From Escherichia coli (lineage in GTDB: Bacteria; Pseudomonadota; Gammaproteobacteria; Enterobacterales; Enterobacteriaceae), in the NCBI GenBank assembly GCA_002099625.1, contig GCA_002099625.1_4857.1: DNA of 64,000 nucleotides. The stretch is one strand, 5' to 3'. Shown here in pieces: positions 4,001-40,303 of this stretch. Numbering within the stretch: the first letter of the stretch is position 1; the number at the start of each line of letters is the position of its first letter. The notes beneath the pieces were generated by a model. It saw nothing but the letters and a program-made list of their open reading frames with translations. It searched no databases and was not told the DNA's origin. The translations under genes and the position numbers were made by a program.

Positions 4001-7000
4001 GCTACCGAAAAGGTTCCTGGATTTCCTGTCACCAAAAGCGGGCAGCATCGTTGGTAAGATTAAGGACTGGCTGAACGAGATTCCGGAAGGCGAAGAAAAG
4101 ACACGTCTCCAGAAAGCGTTCAACCGTGTAACGAGCTTACCGGGTAAAGTGCTCGGTTTTGCGAAACGTGGTGTCGATCGTCTGAAAGACATGATTACCG
4201 ACAACCCACTGACGCGTTGGTGGAAAGGCCGTAAAGATGGTGGGGGTGGTGGTTTCAGTCTCTTCTCATCAACCGGCAAGAAAACCAACCACATCCTTAT
4301 CCGTATCTATAAACTGTTGAACCAACGTTTACCGGGAGATCCGGAAGACGAAAGTTGGACAGAGGAAATGGAGAAGGGCGTCGGGGGTGGCGGTAGTACG
4401 ATCGGTCGTGCAGTACGCGGGGCGTATGATCGTGCGAAAGCGTCATTGTCTGAACGTTTTGGTGGACGTTGGTCAAGAACAAAAGCGTTCTTTGGTCGTG
4501 GACGTGACCGCCTGCGTGGTTGGTTCAGTGGTTTCCGAGGCCGGGCTGGGGATATGCTCGATGGATATCGTGGAGCACGACACGACATTGCTACACGTTA
4601 CGAAGTTGAACGTCGGTTGGCTGGACGCGATGACGATGTTGCTGAGTTTTATCGCAGCCATTTGAACGCGAAAGGTGGCCTTTCTGGCCGTAAAGTCTAC
4701 GGCGATGCGAAGGAAGACCTTGAGACCGCACGTGATGCAGCAGGGAGGGTTATTAACAAAGGGAAGAATGCTGCCAAGTCTGCAGGTGCAAGGTTATTCG
4801 AACGCTTGGACCGAATGATTGGCTTGCAAGAGATGTCGTGGTTTAACACCATGCGCGAATCAGTATCCCGTGCAGGTGGTGACGATGGCATTATTCGCAC
4901 CATGTTTGCGAAGTTCGGTAAACGTAACAAGCCGCCTGAAGGTGATGAAAAACGCGACTACTTTAACTTCTTCAAACGTTGGCGTGAGAAACGTAAGGAG
5001 AAGAAAGAGAAAGCGCAGGGCTCCAAAGGGAAATCTGGCGGTCTGTGGGATATGGTGAAAGGCTTACCTATCATCGGCCCCATCGTCAGTATCTTGGGAA
5101 CTGTGGGTAATATACTCGGTTCTATCACGAAATGGGGGGTGTTAAAACCCGTAGGTCTTTTAGGTAAGGCTGCGTGGAACGTTGGTAAGTTCGCAGTAAC
5201 CCGTTTGGCGGCACCCGCGGTGTCCGCTGTGGCAACTGCGGCATCTGCCGTCGTGACAGCAGTGGGCTGGCCGGCAATTCTTATCGGTGGCGCGATCGCT
5301 GCGGCAGGTTACGCCGCGTACAAGATCGCAACGACTACCTATACCCAGTACCTGGATAAGATGCGTTTAGCTCAGTACGGTTTCCGTGATTACGATAAGT
5401 GGTCGTCGGACGACGGGGCGAAGGCGCGTTACTTAGAAGACGCATTGCGTGAGTATGTGTCTTACGCGGAAGATGGCCAAGCCAGTCTCCGCGGACTAAG
5501 TGGAAAAGACGTTCAGAAGTTAGCTGAAGGGTTCGGTATCAACGTTGAGGAAAAAGGCGAGATGTTGGCCTTCCAAGCGTTTATGCTTCAGCGCTTCATT
5601 CCGATTTATCTCCGCTGGATTACGGCACTGAAATCGATGCCGAACAGTATCCAGTTGGCTGACGTCGGCGATGCGAAGAAAGTATCGAAAGAGGACATGC
5701 AGACACTCTTCAACAAAATGAAGATGACTAAGGATGCAAAAGCGTTCTCTTCGTTAACTGACCCACGCAAAGTCAACCAAGGTTTCTTCTCGAAAGCTTG
5801 GGACGTTGTAACCTTTACACCGAAGGAGTTTTTGAGCGGTGAAGAGGTTATGGAAGTGCAGAATGAAGTTGAGCGTGCAATCAAGTTCAGAATGGACGAT
5901 AAGAAAGCACGTAAGTACGGAATGGCACCGGCTGTAGAGGGGATTAAGTCCGCGGGCGTTGATGAAGCTATCAACAAACTTGGACAGTTGGATAACGAAC
6001 GTAATAAAAATCTGGCGAAGGTAGAGGGTTGGGAAGACGGAACAGAGCAGGTTCAGATTCAGGTAGACTGGAATGCGGTGCTCGACCAGAAAGACATGAA
6101 TGCGATGGAGTCGGTACGTTGGAAGACTTATGGTTTTACCACCATCGACAACGCCACACGCACGTTGATTACGGTATTCGAGAAAAACGTCATCAAAGAC
6201 ATTGACGTGAAAACCGCAAGCTACAAAGGTGATTGGAAGAAAGCAATCGCCTCAATGGTTCCAGACGCTATCGGCACACCGAAAGAAGATCGTTTGAAGC
6301 GGTGGTTCTTTGACCGTTTCTTACCGGTATTCATGACGTACTTGGTTGGGGTGAAACGCTACCTGCCAACAGCTGATCCGCTGAACTTGAAACTGACCGG
6401 CGGTTACCTGTACGAAATCAGTTTGATGATGTCAACAGCTTATAGCTTGAAGGGCGGTATAAGACAGTCGGTGTGGGAAGTGAATATCAACCCATTAGGG
6501 GGCGATGCTAACACTAATCCGTCGTCTATCAAAGCCGAGCTGGAAACGCTGAAGCTGTTATCAAAAGAAGCTGACCTTGCCGTGCGTAACATGATTAAAG
6601 CCATTAAAAATAATGGCAAGCGTGCACGCTGGAAGGATCGTAACAAGAACCGCAGTTCTCTGGAAGTCACCGGTGAAGATGAAGAAGACTCGAACATCAG
6701 TTCGGGAGATTCTTTGTCATCTGACGGTGCTCGCGCCTCAGGCTACATTCCATCGGGCACGAGTGGCGGTGTGCCGGGTAACTTAGGTCAAGTCGTCGAT
6801 GCGGTTGGTGGTGTGCGGAACTACGCTGCAATGACCACTGGTTCGTCGTCGATTAACCTGAGTGATGTGAAAGACGGTGATTATAAGTCACTGGCTGAAA
6901 AATACCCGATAGAAATGTTGGGTAGAAAGGGTGCGTTGAACGTTCCGAATATCAAAGCATTGATTACCGATGCAGCGAACATGATGGGCGTGCCACCTGC

Positions 7001-8132
7001 AGTGGCGTTAGCAATGGCTAAGGCGGAGTCCGGATTTAACTACACCGCTAAAAACCCGTATGCTTCGGCGTCTGGGTTGTTCCAGTTTGTTAACGGCACG
7101 TGGGACGGGATGATGAAGGGGTATTCGCGGAAGTTTGGTATTCCGCGTGTTAACCAAATGGACCCGTGGGCGAATGCTATACTGGGTGTACAGTTCATTC
7201 GTGACAACATCCAACAAGCACAACGTGACCTGGGTGGTAAAGCACCACCTCCAGCCGTGGCTTATCTGTACCACTTCCTAGGTGCAGGCGGCGGTAAGAA
7301 ATTCCTGGAAGCGTGGAAGCGTAATCCGAATATGGCGGCATCGAGTGCTCCTGGGATTACATCCGCAATATTGAGAGGGAATGCCAACGTCTTCTACAGC
7401 AACGGTCGTATACGTAGCGTAGATGGGGTTATTCAGGAACTGAACCGCCGCATGGGTGCAATTTCCGCCAACGAAGTCGCTGCCGATCCGAGCAAGACGA
7501 AGGATATGGTTGCAGGATTGTCGCCTAATTCACCAACCAACCCGGCAGCGGCAATGGGTGCACCGGCCGCTAATGACCCGAGTCTGTCGCCAGCAGATAA
7601 CCTGCCAGCAGATAATGCTAATCGTCGTGATGACGCATTGACGCAGAAAGGGGCCATGGCGGCACAAGATGCAATGGCTACCGCCGCAGGTAATGTAGGA
7701 CCAGCAGCACCTACACCAACCACAGGCGGTACCGGAACATCCGATGCCTCAACAACGGCCGAAACCGTAGCGTCGCAAGCTGCAGCAGAAGGATTGTCTG
7801 CGACGGATGTTGCTAAAGTGAAAGCAGGCGCGGAAGCGCAGGTTAACGCAGCAGCTCGTCCAGTTGCCGCTCCAACTTCTGATGCTACAGCATCGACGCC
7901 AACGCTGAATGGTGACCCGATAGATGTTCAGCAGCTCAAGGTACTGATTCAGTCTCGCGATTACTTGAAAGAGATTCGTGATATTTTGAAATCAAATCCA
8001 AGAGCGGCAAACGACACACGGGGTGGTAGTATCCAGCAAGCGGCAAATGTGCCTCCTCCTGGCTCAGCTGCACGTAGGCAGGAAATAACCCAACCGACAC
8101 CGTCGTTAAACGTAAGTCGGAAAGCAAGCTAA
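1011..8132 (+). CDS. Giant virion-associated protein (2373 aa) with C-terminal SLT lytic transglycosylase domain; resembles the phiKZ gp181 class
   Basis: Single uninterrupted ORF. SLT motifs ESGFNYT...ASASGLFQF...AYLYHFLG at about nt 6940..7340. Gly-rich repeats, a long hydrophobic segment (AAPAVSAVATAASAVVTAVGWPAILIGGAIAAAGYAAY) and an Ala/Pro/Thr-rich C-terminal tail. Confidence 0.8.
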   Translation: MAKRGKDGFDDIDLDRLDDWDDFGEPPRPKDEKKRSPILSTLNVARKSALSTIWPEGKRDQVILKGMPKPAADAYEGYQSAAAAAKDIYAHTKGELEKTERTLKMQARQLGPTMKKYLPDAVTKRFDKWSKSDQLDYQNYDPNQALMDRELGDVFSGVPKDADEQRQLQDRMVEDKLRDSIKEMRADAMHQTMIGMAKDINLLTGLSRGVFLNIERKKLELQYRTLFAIQDIVKMKQSEFDRNTPALEAIVKNTALPDYAKEDFSEVRWANVKRQAAEWMNPLRYADGFMDMIRENTKKKISGIFGEGRGLLESVLGMGVEDDFGMSDSSSLTAERRKTNARDKATAWGSGFLAKKLLGPQIEKLQKWTREEMEKNPEVMKRLQKGAFTFGNLSSISNSAIAGETQGPLADLFRVLNELGIVQPLNREKAFLDERNGETLSRSAKFDRKAYLSIVEVIPAWLAEINKSVRRGYGEHADLEYDITSRGFVDRKVVGNRVRKAVANDEQRLRLQNSINSTVDFVDRGKTLSQKDRQHLADYIESRASQGRAFDVEAILKDPMHLHRYMPGNSAERIKEALQGHSDSLVGGSNELSNELARKISTVQSSITQRQAIIDEAVNIYGERALRDAGIFNYDAKSDTFGVDKDLSDPYTLFNDLAMGKTRSGRALTRDQEIQRKLQNGSALGDYLRRMNQGASGGADDTSLPPALRGGGKGRGMSPRQLAAVLYGETSTNFVELLSQRNRGEEAPRNNFDGIIEAIRGNNNSDTLQKILEHVRSMDEEGVLLASLAGGAGSGDEEMGPPRPGGGSGGGKRRRIIIGEDGLIRRWGGVLFDTATGIGGFAKRGVKGAWNKLNQFGGWARGKVAGMGGGEGPGFLTRMRGLISGSVRGGFEAVSSFGKGLLGIRDIYDDHGNVVLQGARLEAGEYYQVIDGKMVQLKTLDDIKLGSDIVDSAGNLVLAAADLAAAGKLRYYKGGKIQALTQGLASKIGLGFNKVAKLPKRFLDFLSPKAGSIVGKIKDWLNEIPEGEEKTRLQKAFNRVTSLPGKVLGFAKRGVDRLKDMITDNPLTRWWKGRKDGGGGGFSLFSSTGKKTNHILIRIYKLLNQRLPGDPEDESWTEEMEKGVGGGGSTIGRAVRGAYDRAKASLSERFGGRWSRTKAFFGRGRDRLRGWFSGFRGRAGDMLDGYRGARHDIATRYEVERRLAGRDDDVAEFYRSHLNAKGGLSGRKVYGDAKEDLETARDAAGRVINKGKNAAKSAGARLFERLDRMIGLQEMSWFNTMRESVSRAGGDDGIIRTMFAKFGKRNKPPEGDEKRDYFNFFKRWREKRKEKKEKAQGSKGKSGGLWDMVKGLPIIGPIVSILGTVGNILGSITKWGVLKPVGLLGKAAWNVGKFAVTRLAAPAVSAVATAASAVVTAVGWPAILIGGAIAAAGYAAYKIATTTYTQYLDKMRLAQYGFRDYDKWSSDDGAKARYLEDALREYVSYAEDGQASLRGLSGKDVQKLAEGFGINVEEKGEMLAFQAFMLQRFIPIYLRWITALKSMPNSIQLADVGDAKKVSKEDMQTLFNKMKMTKDAKAFSSLTDPRKVNQGFFSKAWDVVTFTPKEFLSGEEVMEVQNEVERAIKFRMDDKKARKYGMAPAVEGIKSAGVDEAINKLGQLDNERNKNLAKVEGWEDGTEQVQIQVDWNAVLDQKDMNAMESVRWKTYGFTTIDNATRTLITVFEKNVIKDIDVKTASYKGDWKKAIASMVPDAIGTPKEDRLKRWFFDRFLPVFMTYLVGVKRYLPTADPLNLKLTGGYLYEISLMMSTAYSLKGGIRQSVWEVNINPLGGDANTNPSSIKAELETLKLLSKEADLAVRNMIKAIKNNGKRARWKDRNKNRSSLEVTGEDEEDSNISSGDSLSSDGARASGYIPSGTSGGVPGNLGQVVDAVGGVRNYAAMTTGSSSINLSDVKDGDYKSLAEKYPIEMLGRKGALNVPNIKALITDAANMMGVPPAVALAMAKAESGFNYTAKNPYASASGLFQFVNGTWDGMMKGYSRKFGIPRVNQMDPWANAILGVQFIRDNIQQAQRDLGGKAPPPAVAYLYHFLGAGGGKKFLEAWKRNPNMAASSAPGITSAILRGNANVFYSNGRIRSVDGVIQELNRRMGAISANEVAADPSKTKDMVAGLSPNSPTNPAAAMGAPAANDPSLSPADNLPADNANRRDDALTQKGAMAAQDAMATAAGNVGPAAPTPTTGGTGTSDASTTAETVASQAAAEGLSATDVAKVKAGAEAQVNAAARPVAAPTSDATASTPTLNGDPIDVQQLKVLIQSRDYLKEIRDILKSNPRAANDTRGGSIQQAANVPPPGSAARRQEITQPTPSLNVSRKAS

Positions 8133-36634: not shown

Positions 36635-36901
36635 CTAGTTACGGTCGGAATTAAAGACGTGCCAGGTACTACGCCAGCGAAAGAATCGGGTTATGAAACC
36701 ACGTATGTGGTAGCCTGAGAACAACATCCAGATGGTAAGAAAGAGTTGCGCCCATGGAGACGTGAGTTCCATCAGATGCGCGACGATCGCACCGATCACC
36801 AACATTACCGTAGAGAATAACAAACTATACATCATCGGAATGTTGTGGCTATAGCGTTTCTCCATCCAGTAGAGAAAATTTATTAAACGTTTCACGAACA
36901 C
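36635..36901 (-). CDS. Small membrane protein (88 aa, two predicted TM helices); holin-like candidate
   Basis: Hydrophobic segments SLLFSTVMLVIGAIVAHL and LFLTIWMLFSGYHI. Confidence 0.4.
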   Translation of the reverse strand: MFVKRLINFLYWMEKRYSHNIPMMYSLLFSTVMLVIGAIVAHLMELTSPWAQLFLTIWMLFSGYHIRGFITRFFRWRSTWHVFNSDRN

Positions 36902-36952: not shown

Positions 36953-37546
36953 TTACGCTTCGGCCTCAAAGAACGGCTGGTTCGGTACCACTGCATATTC
37001 GAGCACGAAAAGATGTTCTGGGGCATCTTCTGCTCGCCACAGTTTGTGGCACGTTGCCAGTTTTTCCAGGATGGTCAACCAGCTGAGCTGGCAGAAAGCA
37101 CGATCGCCGAAGAACAGTTTCTGCAGTGCAATCGACACATCCATATACGCCTGTTTGAAGTCGAGTTCTTTATCGTAACCCGCCGACTGTCGCCACGTCA
37201 GCACGAAGCCTGCTTCGGTTTCGTTAATTGCTGGACGTAAACCACAAATCCACATCAGCGCCAGATTAACGTTCCAGTCGAATTCGATACCTTCGTCTTC
37301 GTCATCACCAAACGCCGCGTTTAACGCGTCGTAGAAACCGTGGTTCTCTGCGAACCATTCGCCGTACTCAACGTAGACAGGTGCTTCGACAGCTTCCCCA
37401 TCGGCTTCACCGATAGGACGCTCAACGTAGTTCGGATTGGTTTGAACGTGTTCCGCACCCGCGCGAATCAGTTCGTAAACGTCTTTGGCGGTGATTTGTG
37501 CGGCTGTTTTAAGACCTGGATACCAGGGGCGTGTTACGAGTGTCAA
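36953..37546 (-). CDS. Hypothetical protein (197 aa)
   Basis: ORF; 4-nt overlap with the upstream SLT gene. Confidence 0.5.
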   Translation of the reverse strand: MTLVTRPWYPGLKTAAQITAKDVYELIRAGAEHVQTNPNYVERPIGEADGEAVEAPVYVEYGEWFAENHGFYDALNAAFGDDEDEGIEFDWNVNLALMWICGLRPAINETEAGFVLTWRQSAGYDKELDFKQAYMDVSIALQKLFFGDRAFCQLSWLTILEKLATCHKLWRAEDAPEHLFVLEYAVVPNQPFFEAEA

Positions 37547-38265
37547 AGCAATGCTCCTTTCATGATAGTGTTATTTGCCAGTAATGTACCGGCCGCAGGT
37601 GATATTTTGGTGTACAGCGTATCCCAGATTTTCTGAAGTTCGGCGACGCGTTGGTCGTGGTCTTCCTTCGCAAAAGCAAGCTGACGTGTTTCAGCTTTCG
37701 GTGGTGTCATTTTCGCACCGTAGAATGCTGCGTCTTTTCGGTAGCTGGCCATCCAGCGTTTCCCGACCGGTGATTTCTTTTTAATCATCGCAACAGCAGC
37801 ACCCTCACCGAAGCGGTAGCCTAAAGCGATTTCGGCTGTGCTCGGCTTGCGTTTGAGTTGTTTTGTCAGATGATCCTCGATGTGTTTCATGTAAACGGCA
37901 GCAAGCTGTACAGCATACTTCGGTTTATTAAGGTCCGCATTCTTTGGGATGTTAAGTTGTTTCCCATACAGACGTATCATGGAGCGTTTAGTGCCTGTCG
38001 TCATTTGGACAACACTACTAGCACTGCTCGATTTATTCTTACCCACGTTTTTATTAAAACGGGATTCACGATAAATGGTGGTCGCGAGCATCCCGGCATG
38101 TACGCCTTGTTTTCGAGATGCGGTGACGATGAGAGGTTTAATCTCATTGAACTGGTCCTGGATAAGGACGAATTCTTTTTGGTGTTTGTTACTGGTGGTC
38201 TGGTAAGAAGCGTTGCTGTTGAACGTAGTCATTGCTACCAGAAGAAATAAAATGGTGCGAAACAT
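37543..38265 (-). CDS. Secreted SLT-domain lytic transglycosylase (240 aa); endolysin candidate
   Basis: N-terminal signal peptide (MFRTILFLLVAMTTFNSNA) and SLT motifs TIYRESRFN ... VVQMTTGT. Confidence 0.6.
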   Translation of the reverse strand: MFRTILFLLVAMTTFNSNASYQTTSNKHQKEFVLIQDQFNEIKPLIVTASRKQGVHAGMLATTIYRESRFNKNVGKNKSSSASSVVQMTTGTKRSMIRLYGKQLNIPKNADLNKPKYAVQLAAVYMKHIEDHLTKQLKRKPSTAEIALGYRFGEGAAVAMIKKKSPVGKRWMASYRKDAAFYGAKMTPPKAETRQLAFAKEDHDQRVAELQKIWDTLYTKISPAAGTLLANNTIMKGALL

Positions 38266-38355
38266 GGATGTATCTCCAAACGGATTTATACTTTTCCGTT
38301 CCCAATCCGGGAAGACGGCGCGGACGGCATTGTGCTCCTTTGTAATGTGCCCTGA

Positions 38356-38367
38356 TGATAATATCTA
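38356..38367. promoter_or_regulatory. Near-palindromic motif TGATAATATCTA (site 3)
   Basis: Between the macro-domain gene and the secreted SLT gene, about 90 nt upstream of the latter. Confidence 0.35.
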
Positions 38368-38865
38368 TTTGAAACTATTTGGGATGATTTTCTCTGCTTC
38401 CTTTAGCAGTGTGTCCGGTAAATAGAATCGATAAGTCTGCTCCGTGTGTTGTAGTCGTTTCTGTAAGTGTATAAAGATTTCCAATCGCTCATGGTAACGT
38501 AACCAACCGTTAGCCATCCCTAGGGGCGGTATCGCAATCCCTCCTTCTAAGTCTTCCCCTAGTCGCGCCAGCGCATCAATGCCGGACGTGACATAGTAAA
38601 TCTGCGATTTATAGCGAAAATGGGTTTTAGTAGGAAGGAGTATTACCCCTTCCTCAGGATAACAATAGACCTCACCGATAACGATTTGCTCTTTACGACA
38701 TTTCTGGCGATAGTCATTATAAAGCGATGGGAAGCGTTCTCGGCACGCCAAAGCAATGCCCCTTCCCATTGCACCAACACAGTTAACTGTAACGACCTTG
38801 AAGCGCTCAGGCGCGTTAAACAAGTCGTGGGAGATAACGGCCTCGTCGATCAGTTCGAGTGACAT
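38365..38865 (-). CDS. Macro-domain protein, TARG1/DarG-like subclass (166 aa)
   Basis: VTVNCVGAMGRGIALACRERFP matches the TARG1-type C..MGAGIA..F...F motif (recalled from memory); downstream IAIPPLGMANGWLRY fits the second conserved block. Confidence 0.6.
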   Translation of the reverse strand: MSLELIDEAVISHDLFNAPERFKVVTVNCVGAMGRGIALACRERFPSLYNDYRQKCRKEQIVIGEVYCYPEEGVILLPTKTHFRYKSQIYYVTSGIDALARLGEDLEGGIAIPPLGMANGWLRYHERLEIFIHLQKRLQHTEQTYRFYLPDTLLKEAEKIIPNSFK

Positions 38866-39064
38866 CTATTGCCATACCCCATTGTGAAATAACCGGAGAC
38901 TGAAGCAACGATTCCAGCTCAGTAAGAACTCTGGCTTTTGCTTCTTCGCGCAACTTACGGACTTCCGGGTCAGGTTTTCCTGCGCCCAAATATTGGGGTT
39001 CTGTTTGTGGGGTAGGGAAGCCACAGAAAGAACCAACCGTTATTCCGATGATTGTTTTTTGCAT
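38816..39064 (-). CDS. Small hypothetical protein (82 aa)
   Basis: ORF whose 3-prime end overlaps the macro gene start by 50 nt; may be shorter or spurious. Confidence 0.3.
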   Translation of the reverse strand: MQKTIIGITVGSFCGFPTPQTEPQYLGAGKPDPEVRKLREEAKARVLTELESLLQSPVISQWGMAIDVTRTDRRGRYLPRLV

Positions 39065-39498: not shown

Positions 39499-39762
39499 TT
39501 AGGGTAAAGTTGCCTCCCAGTCGTGGTGGTGAGGCTCAGGCAGCGTACCAAGCGCTGCTTTAATACACGTACTCAGCGGAGTATCATCGAACGCAACACG
39601 CCCGATAGTACCCACGTTGATGTGTTTAGGATTTACGGGTAAGAACTCCTTCACCCGCTCGTACTCAGCCCAACAGACATCGGTGTTTAAAGCTGAAAAC
39701 CCAGGACGGTGAAACATAAATAGCACTCCTCGCGTAAAAATACCCCACTCATAGTGAGGCAT
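39499..39762 (-). CDS. Hypothetical protein (87 aa)
   Basis: ORF in array. Confidence 0.4.
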   Translation of the reverse strand: MPHYEWGIFTRGVLFMFHRPGFSALNTDVCWAEYERVKEFLPVNPKHINVGTIGRVAFDDTPLSTCIKAALGTLPEPHHHDWEATLP

Positions 39763-39787: not shown

Positions 39788-40303
39788 CTATGCTACCGCA
39801 GTCCTTAAAGGTTCATCTGCTTCCGCAGGAACCTGCTTCTTAAATTCAAGCCATTGTCCGTCTGTAGAGACGGTCTTGTCAAAACCGCGAGCGGTAAAGA
39901 ACGCAATACCAGCTTCCTGGCAAGCGTATATTCCCCCATGCGCACTGGTGAACTGTTCATTCACATCAAGCGCATCAAAAATCTGCGTCATCGTTTTACG
40001 ACGGCGTGCCATTTCAGACACGAACATCGTACGAATCTTCAGAACCCCAGCGATTACGCGATACAAACAGTAACCAACAGGGGTGCCCCCTTCCAGAGCA
40101 ACGCAAGCACGGTTCCCCGCCAACAGTTTCTCCAGAGTGAGGTTCGGAATCTCACCTTTTTCGATATGGAGTATGGTACGTTGGTGGTTCAGAAATTTAT
40201 AATGCAGCCCCAACAGCTGTTTATTTTGTGCTTCCGTTAAATCTGAAGATGAGGAAAGAATGACAATTTCGGCCATGAGCTGAATTCCTAAGTGAGCTTT
40301 CAC
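39788..40303 (-). CDS. Hypothetical protein, possible GNAT-like acetyltransferase fold
   Basis: Weak resemblance only (ALEGGTPVGYCLYRV ... GIAFFTARGF). Confidence 0.4.
   Translation of the reverse strand: MKAHLGIQLMAEIVILSSSSDLTEAQNKQLLGLHYKFLNHQRTILHIEKGEIPNLTLEKLLAGNRACVALEGGTPVGYCLYRVIAGVLKIRTMFVSEMARRRKTMTQIFDALDVNEQFTSAHGGIYACQEAGIAFFTARGFDKTVSTDGQWLEFKKQVPAEADEPLRTAVA

Follow-up and report, generated by a model that had tools for sequence, protein, structure and literature searches.

Does the short open reading frame at positions 38365..38865 of the 64,000-nt stretch of DNA analysed here (hereafter the window) code for an enzyme that removes ADP-ribose from DNA, and, if so, is it the enzymatic part of a bacterial antitoxin carried by a phage? 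The question arose from the initial annotation of the sequence, which had described a 166-aa product with two motif blocks, assigned it to the TARG1/DarG subclass of macrodomains rather than to MacroD, and regarded a counter-defence role against DarT as plausible. The reading frame and both motif blocks were recovered as described, and the features needed for the argument are the following:

38365..38865, minus strand: free-standing macrodomain gene of the DarG2 type, an open reading frame with an ATG start encoding 166 aa
38728-38793, minus strand: VTVNCVGAMGRGIALACRERFP, residues 25-46, the first motif quoted in the initial annotation
38749..38790, minus strand: loop 1, ADP-ribose-binding, TVNCVGAMGRGIAL, residues 26-39, delimited by conservation in 47 homologues and alignment with DarG
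38782-38784, minus strand: codon of Asn28, the equivalent of T. aquaticus DarG Asn22
38626..38631, minus strand: Thr79-Lys80 of the PTK motif, invariant in 47 homologues and aligned with DarG and TARG1
38500..38532, minus strand: loop 2, diphosphate-binding, IPPLGMANGWL, residues 112-122, delimited by conservation in the homologues
38503-38505, minus strand: codon of Trp121, the clade-specific replacement of DarG Gly122
38368..38415, minus strand: C-terminal helix and tail, residues 151-166, DTLLKEAEKIIPNSFK, located beyond the match to the DarG macro model
37543..38265, minus strand: gene of an SLT-domain transglycosylase, the downstream neighbour (Pfam SLT, E=2.2e-6; PHROG transglycosylase, 1e-57)

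Phage origin of the window and taxonomic distribution of the protein

The region shares 99.3% identity with SPLA3 and SPFM4, two phages of Salmonella, and 97% with SPN3US (~240 kb; genus Seoulvirus), a phage that the literature places among the nucleus-forming Chimalliviridae. Judged by these sequence identities, the window comes from an SPN3US-like jumbo phage, i.e. a chimallivirus. The orthologue in SPN3US itself (ACQ60_gp070; YP_009153490.1) is 98% identical and is named "macro domain-containing protein" in RefSeq. Full-length orthologues sharing 45-99% identity are found in 62 phage records, covering jumbo phages of Salmonella, Escherichia, Proteus, Erwinia and Cronobacter, and 274 records contain more distant homologues, including those from PhiKZ-like phages, 201phi2-1 and Goslar; the protein also matches PHROG_335 (E=1e-29). 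The orthologue from the Erwinia phage Asesino, gp217 (YP_009290835.1), has the same length and is 70% identical over the whole of it (E=2e-90), and the gene order around it—a GNAT gene, small genes, the macrodomain gene and an SLT transglycosylase gene—is the same as in the window.

Sequence and structural relationships

The sequence matches the antitoxin_DarG model of NCBIfam (NF048014; E=7.3e-31, 107.7 bits) and the DarG model of PADLOC (E=3.5e-32), in both cases over the N-terminal macro half only, and its best relatives of solved structure are the DarG macrodomains 5M3I, 5M31 and 5M3E (E=1.9e-20 and 8.7e-19), which originate from the DarG proteins of M. tuberculosis and T. aquaticus (PMC5179494). 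The generic Pfam Macro model, on the other hand, gives 21.7 bits (E=2e-4), i.e. 0.3 bits short of the gathering cut-off of 22. The profile searches proposed in the initial annotation were thus successful with the DarG models and narrowly unsuccessful with Pfam Macro, the sub-threshold score indicating that the protein is not a macrodomain of the MacroD type.

The same picture, with greater contrast, was obtained with a family profile built from 47 homologues and searched against the PDB, in which the DarG macrodomains 5M3I and 5M31 were found at E=4.4e-57 and 3.7e-54, the T. africanus DarTG fusion (7OMU) at E=1.7e-35, TARG1 at E=1.8e-10, and alphavirus nsP3, Poa1p, MacroD-like and other macrodomains at E=1e-7 or weaker. 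As far as Poa1p is concerned, the match is confined to residues 21-59, with E=0.05 by sequence and 1.7e-4 with the profile; being both partial and marginal, it does not place the protein, any more than the Pfam Macro score does, among macrodomains of the MacroD or Poa1p type.

The AlphaFold2 model, built on the alignment of the 47 homologues, is of high confidence (pLDDT 93.7, pTM 0.90) and consists of mixed β-strands between flanking helices, that is, the three-layer α/β/α fold with the ADP-ribose cleft that is typical of the macrodomain superfamily. When compared with the PDB by Foldseek, it yielded 163 macrodomain matches at E<=1e-3, the first four positions being occupied exclusively by DarG, and TARG1 and the viral macrodomains coming only after it. 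The top match is T. aquaticus DarG (5M31; TM 0.84, RMSD 2.0 Å, 32% identity), the three DarG structures 5M31, 5M3E and 5M3I together cover a TM range of 0.81-0.84 and an RMSD range of 2.0-2.7 Å, and those of TARG1 reach TM values of 0.76-0.80. Sequence and predicted structure arrange the families in the same order. On both grounds, the assignment to macrodomains is far beyond chance, and the proposed subclass, correct in setting the protein apart from MacroD, can be narrowed to the DarG type.

It should be pointed out that TARG1 is the next-closest characterised family and has the catalytic lysine in common with the protein studied here. Since ARTs have been reported in over 40% of jumbo phages (PMC9503650), a TARG1-like de-ADP-ribosylase of proteins might be considered as well, one that would take ADP-ribose off Glu/Asp or other residues of phage or host proteins, e.g. 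in response to a host ART defence or to balance an ART of the phage itself. DarG, however, outscores TARG1 by about 45 orders of magnitude, and there is no ART in the neighbourhood of the macrodomain gene; the residues of the active site that bear on the same issue are dealt with below.

Relationship to the AdfM proteins and other anti-DarT factors

Free-standing DarG2-like macrodomains of chimalliviruses have been described as AdfM, the anti-DarT factor macro, with PhiKZ gp104, PhiPA3 gp108, Goslar gp83 and Asesino gp217 as the named members and with homologues in approximately one half of the chimalliviruses (Morgan et al., Cell Rep 2026, PMC13309987). According to that study, PhiKZ AdfM strips the ADP-ribose that DarT2 sets on the second T of TNTC in DNA and completely relieves E. 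coli of the toxicity of DarT2, and AdfM is needed by both PhiKZ and PhiPA3 for plating on DarTG2 hosts, 3-6 logs being lost without it; de-ADP-ribosylation and protection have been shown for PhiKZ and, genetically, for PhiPA3. Entry into the phage nucleus was demonstrated with the AdfM proteins of PhiKZ, PhiPA3 and Asesino, and this import is reportedly specific for cognate pairs of phage and protein (PMC13309987).

The protein encoded in the window belongs to this group, being a free-standing DarG2-like macrodomain from a chimallivirus, homologous to PhiKZ gp104 (35% identity, E=3e-25) and sharing with the chimallivirus AdfMs the size of ~160-186 aa, the catalytic Asn and Lys and the lack of a DarT-binding domain. 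With the family described and named in 2025-2026, and with the close orthologue Asesino gp217 included in a published study, the feature as such is not new. In terms of the DarG model, the window protein (107.7 bits) stands close to Asesino gp217 (117.4 bits) and below PhiKZ gp104 (137.8 bits). Within the macro core, the identity is ~37% to both bacterial DarG and PhiKZ AdfM and 35% to Goslar gp83; PhiKZ AdfM, only 35-37% identical, is therefore no closer than bacterial DarG, a point that counts against the function proposed below. The window protein also differs from PhiKZ AdfM in loop 2, where its clade has GM[AV]NGW in place of the GCANGG of PhiKZ.

In a simple neighbour-joining tree, calculated without bootstrap and hence lacking support values, the SPN3US/Erwinia clade, the PhiKZ/201phi2-1 clade and Goslar occupy separate branches, the PhiKZ/201phi2-1 clade being grouped with the kuravirus SU10 near bacterial DarG. 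This arrangement hints at either more than one acquisition or fast divergence.

The name AdfM has been given also to Tk.4 of phage T4, the deletion of which sensitises T4 to DarTG2 (HIDEN-SEQ preprint, 10.1101/2025.11.20.689424). Although Tk.4 is likewise a free-standing phage macrodomain, it shares only ~19% identity with the window protein (pairwise E=0.009), scores 30.3 bits against the DarG model and has no PTK lysine in the alignment. Equivalence of the two was therefore rejected, their similarity being near noise and Tk.4 representing a different macrodomain lineage with a shared name. A DarT-neutralising role is further common to AdfA (T4/RB69), AdfB (ICP1 Gp145), which binds DarT directly, and AdfN, a phage NADAR that is specific for the guanine adducts of DarT1, ineffective against DarTG2, and based on the same logic of an orphan antitoxin enzyme; none of those three, however, is a macrodomain.

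Active site and ligand contacts

Residues T26, N28, G31, M33, G34, G36, A38, Y52, T79, K80, G116 and G120 are invariant in the 47 homologues. In the alignment to T. aquaticus DarG, N28 corresponds to N22 and K80 to K80, i.e. to the residues whose mutation impairs DarG most, the K80A mutant being inactive (PMC5179494). The DarG ligand contacts T20, T79, G117, N120 and G121 have their counterparts in T26, T79, G116, N119 and G120; of these, T79, G117 and G121 of DarG either bind ADP-ribose or are needed for activity (PMC5179494). Lys29 in loop 1, whose role along with that of N22 has been described for T. aquaticus DarG (PMC5179494), gives way to R35, a conservative exchange. The catalytic Lys and Asn as well as the ADP-ribose-binding Thr and Gly residues of the DarG type are thus present, with substitutions at the positions of DarG G119, G122 and W83.

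The region of K80 is aligned with PTKKHW of DarG and ITKKRA of TARG1, so that K80 also corresponds to TARG1 Lys84, whereas Asp125 of TARG1 falls on the invariant G120, a position at which DarG has Gly, too. From the catalytic Lys/Asp pair anticipated in the initial annotation, it is therefore the Lys that is conserved, while the Asp is replaced by Gly and the second catalytic residue is the Asn (N28); with K80 kept and Asp125 exchanged for Gly120, the outcome is DarG-like and not TARG1-like. Human TARG1 (OARD1/C6orf130; 4J5Q/R/S), although the closest structural relative of DarG (PMC5179494) and a member of the same macrodomain subclass, shares ~16% identity with the window protein in the structural alignment and is without the loop-1 Asn. 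With this DarG-specific Asn present, and with the characterised phage homologue, PhiKZ AdfM, acting on DNA, the protein de-ADP-ribosylase mentioned above can be considered very unlikely.

With regard to the remaining ligand contacts, the substitutions against T. aquaticus DarG are N8→D14, Q34→A40, W83→F83, G119→A118 and G122→W121. Several ADP-ribose contacts thus differ, including the position of G119, at which the replacement G119E impairs DarG (PMC5179494). Such changes—an Ala at the G119-equivalent and a bulky Trp in the binding loop—might, along with the Pfam Macro score under the gathering threshold, be taken as signs of an ADP-ribose "reader" or a decaying, non-catalytic macrodomain, having no enzymatic role in counter-defence. 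PhiKZ AdfM, however, is active despite carrying Ala at the same position (GCANGGL); moreover, the catalytic Lys and Asn and all the loop glycines are invariant in homologues down to ~30% identity, and full-length open reading frames have been kept in the 62 phage records, all of which makes the loss of catalysis extremely improbable.

Trp121, which adjoins the glycine of the mobile loop, is found throughout the SPN3US/Erwinia clade of jumbo phages, where it defines the loop-2 signature GM[AV]NGW[LIV], and the Asesino orthologue has the same Trp loop in the form GMAHGWL. Neither the DarG-like proteins of bacteria nor those of PhiKZ, 201phi2-1 and SU10 contain this Trp, and the clade-specific loop poses a small structure-function question of its own. 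Because of the invariant Trp and the several substituted ligand contacts, the substrate range of the SPN3US/Erwinia clade may differ from that of DarG and PhiKZ AdfM, in the sense, for instance, of a broader eraser that would also take off other base- or RNA-linked ADP-ribose marks, or of an eraser adapted to the DarT variants of enterobacteria, and the chimallivirus AdfMs may go back to several independent captures of bacterial DarG macrodomains instead of a single lineage; this extended scenario is regarded as unlikely.

It should be noted that macrodomains can use other substrates, such as protein, RNA and free ADP-ribose derivatives, and that sequence by itself leaves the substrate unfixed. 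A clade with Trp121 shifted to RNA (CmdT-like toxins), to another base adduct of the DarT family, or to Appr-1''-p or O-acetyl-ADP-ribose signals and metabolites would be compatible with the clade-specific signature and the substituted contacts, and its small-molecule variant also with the public labels "phosphatase" and "Appr-1-p processing protein" and the weak N-terminal similarity to Poa1p. These labels, however, are legacy names for macrodomains rather than results of tests, the Poa1p match covers only the short segment given above, and no member of the DarG catalytic set has been lost. Furthermore, the Asesino orthologue, which possesses the Trp loop, enters the phage nucleus, i.e. the place where the DNA is, and this argues for a DNA substrate; a shift to some other nucleic acid or to a small molecule appears unlikely.

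Parts of the antitoxin that are missing

Apart from the macrodomain, little of a bacterial antitoxin is left. The model of DarG is matched at positions 7-154 of 338 only, the 166-aa protein ends soon after the macro fold, with a helix at residues 151-160 and a short tail of low confidence in the AlphaFold2 model, and the DarT-binding C-terminal domain is absent. The score of 107.7 bits is consequently well below the 250-bit cut-off of the NF048014 equivalog, which describes the full-length DarG of ~340 aa. There is no adjoining darT gene either, and no partner gene for DarT, ART or NADAR was found by Pfam and PHROGs among the ten neighbours, which comprise, besides the SLT transglycosylase, a GNAT acetyltransferase, an ATPase resembling SbcC and proteins to which no function has been assigned. 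Without the C-terminal domain and without a toxin partner, the gene represents an orphan copy of just the enzyme domain of the antitoxin. In comparison with bacterial DarG (DarG2; 5M31, 5M3E, 5M3I and 7OMU), it has retained the same fold, ~31-37% identity, the equivalents of Lys80 and Asn22 and the glycine-rich loops, but it is a gene of a lytic phage and not a part of a bacterial toxin-antitoxin operon. The macrodomain of DarG alone is known to suffice for the neutralisation of DarT (Jankevicius et al. 2016, PMC5179494).

Proposed function

Taking the above together, the 166-aa protein is proposed to be an eraser of ADP-ribose from DNA with an anti-DarTG2 function, a reading to which a probability of roughly 80% is given and which is directly supported by the fold, the DarG-type membership, the conserved catalytic residues, the lack of both a DarT-binding domain and a toxin partner, and the orthology to AdfM. 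The alternatives are disfavoured because of the margin between DarG and the other families, the invariant DarG catalytic set and the nuclear localisation of the Trp-loop orthologue from Asesino.

The gene would accordingly be an "orphan antitoxin", i.e. the enzymatic macro half of DarG2 in an SPN3US-like nucleus-forming jumbo phage. Upon infection of a host possessing DarTG2, freed DarT2 would ADP-ribosylate thymidines in single-stranded phage DNA; the cleft of the macrodomain, formed by the loops TVNCVGAMGRGIAL and PPLGMANGWL, would bind the ADP-ribose, and Lys80, with the assistance of Asn28, would cleave the thymidine-ribose bond, so that the unmodified DNA would be restored and replication and packaging could proceed. 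By analogy with the orthologues, the protein probably enters the phage nucleus, the site of the phage DNA; the specificity of import for cognate pairs means, however, that this localisation is not transferable by homology with certainty. Enzymatic activity on DNA and protection from DarTG2 in Salmonella and E. coli hosts would likewise be expected from the homologues, and the counter-defence role that the initial annotation had held to be plausible gains support from them, given that PhiKZ gp104/AdfM acts on DarT2-modified DNA.

If so, resistance to DarTG2 is probable for SPN3US, a jumbo phage of Salmonella that is amenable to genetics. The gene would provide an example of a phage that has appropriated the catalytic portion of an antitoxin from bacteria in order to remove a defence mark damaging to DNA, and it would illustrate that the shell of protein around the phage nucleus does not by itself give sufficient shielding, a story told already with AdfM of PhiKZ, PhiPA3 and Asesino in 2026 and with Tk.4 of T4 in 2025.

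The SLT neighbour and the intergenic spacer

The initial annotation had also drawn attention to the position of the macrodomain gene beside that of a secreted SLT protein and to a near-palindromic motif between them. The former holds, the neighbour having an SLT domain and a hydrophobic, signal-like N-terminus (MFRTILFLLVAMTTFNSNA). The latter does not, since nothing more than a stem of 5 bp (TTCCC-GGATT-GGGAA, 38299-38313) is present in the 99-nt spacer: a repeat search with seed 6 detected no inverted repeats in the spacer, its RNA folds no better than shuffled sequences (z=+1.07), and the window has a single copy of the 15-nt hairpin motif, where 1.6 copies would be expected by chance. The motif is absent from the orthologous spacer of Asesino, and the blocks that the two spacers do share have no further copies in the window. 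Neither a sigma-70 promoter nor a terminator on the minus strand could be convincingly recognised in the spacer. The palindrome was therefore rejected as a regulatory part of the feature, and neither it nor the adjacency of the SLT gene has a demonstrable connection with the function of the macrodomain gene.

Database annotation

The annotation of the orthologues from the SPN3US group is inconsistent in databases, the labels found in other records being "phosphatase", "protein-ADP-ribosylation protein", "putative Appr-1-p processing protein" and "hypothetical protein". The apparent truncated or variant alleles in SPFM phages were rejected as natural variants; they are database artefacts with blocks of ~20 aa in reversed order. 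As an annotation, "phosphatase" or "Appr-1-p processing" was rejected, too, in view of the legacy character of these names and the marginal and partial match to Poa1p. Based on the sequence relationships, the existing labels "phosphatase" and "hypothetical protein" can be corrected to that of a putative DarG2-like DNA ADP-ribosylglycohydrolase (AdfM).

The diphosphate-binding loop and the name AdfM

The macro protein, a free-standing DarG-type macrodomain orthologous to the anti-DarT factor AdfM of chimalliviruses, carries in its diphosphate-binding loop (codons within 38500-38520) an invariant tryptophan, W121 (38503-38505), at the position of Gly122 of DarG. The loop signature GM[AV]NGW is found throughout the clade of SPN3US and Erwinia jumbo phages, whereas both the bacterial DarG proteins and the AdfM of PhiKZ have glycine at the equivalent position.

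The T4 macrodomain Tk.4, named AdfM in the 2025 HIDEN-SEQ preprint (10.1101/2025.11.20.689424), is very different from the chimallivirus AdfM:

L003 (T4 sequence record) 4923-5390, T4 tk.4

It scores 30 bits against the DarG model, and in the alignment made in this analysis the catalytic lysine of the PTK motif has no counterpart in Tk.4. Judged from these sequence comparisons, the name AdfM now covers two unrelated lineages, i.e. T4 Tk.4 and the chimallivirus AdfM.

Genes surrounding the macro gene

The following features lie around the macro gene (38365-38865, minus strand):

36635-36901, minus, 88-aa ORF with two hydrophobic stretches and a sub-threshold DUF4231 match
38816-39064, minus, candidate 82-aa ORF (gp071 in the SPN3US annotation), on the upstream side of the macro gene
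38866-39036, minus, alternative candidate 56-aa ORF with a TTG start, sharing its reading frame with the macro gene
39499-39762, minus, 87-aa ORF at an indel site
39788-40303, minus, GNAT acetyltransferase gene (PHROG 4e-42)

The candidate 82-aa ORF overlaps the start of the macro gene by 50 nt and its product has no match in Pfam or PHROG; the equivalent 246-nt stretch of the Erwinia phage Asesino is left without annotation. The alternative 56-aa ORF ends with a TAG stop codon directly before the macro ATG.

The GNAT gene is located upstream, four small genes away from the macro gene. Asesino keeps the same order (gp212 and gp217, respectively). An acyl-CoA N-acyltransferase is also annotated adjoining the macro gene in the Serratia phage Moabite. 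This proximity may be a coincidence.

The SPN3US group is polymorphic for an indel (39499-39762 in the window versus 6505-7229 in the SPN3US record L001). While a single 87-aa ORF occupies this site in the window and in the SPLA/SPFM phages, SPN3US, SEGD1, EC001 and others contain approximately 510 bp extra, corresponding to two genes, gp073 and gp074, and their BLAST matches are therefore split into two pieces.

With regard to the 88-aa ORF, its match to DUF4231 (E=3.6e-4, 21.4 bits) is below the 24.7-bit threshold, and in relatives the ORF carries no functional annotation.

The macro region in deposited SPFM genomes

In several public SPFM phage records (SPFM1, 5, 6, 7, 8, 12, 14, 15 and 20; LR535904, LR535912 and others), the region corresponding to 38365-38865 is scrambled in blocks of about 60 nt, matching the window by megablast in at least 40 pieces at 99% identity. 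The annotated "proteins" P0037, P0043 and P0050 are the macro protein with blocks of about 20 residues in reversed order. A line-wise reverse-complement error of the records, rather than biology, seems to be the cause.
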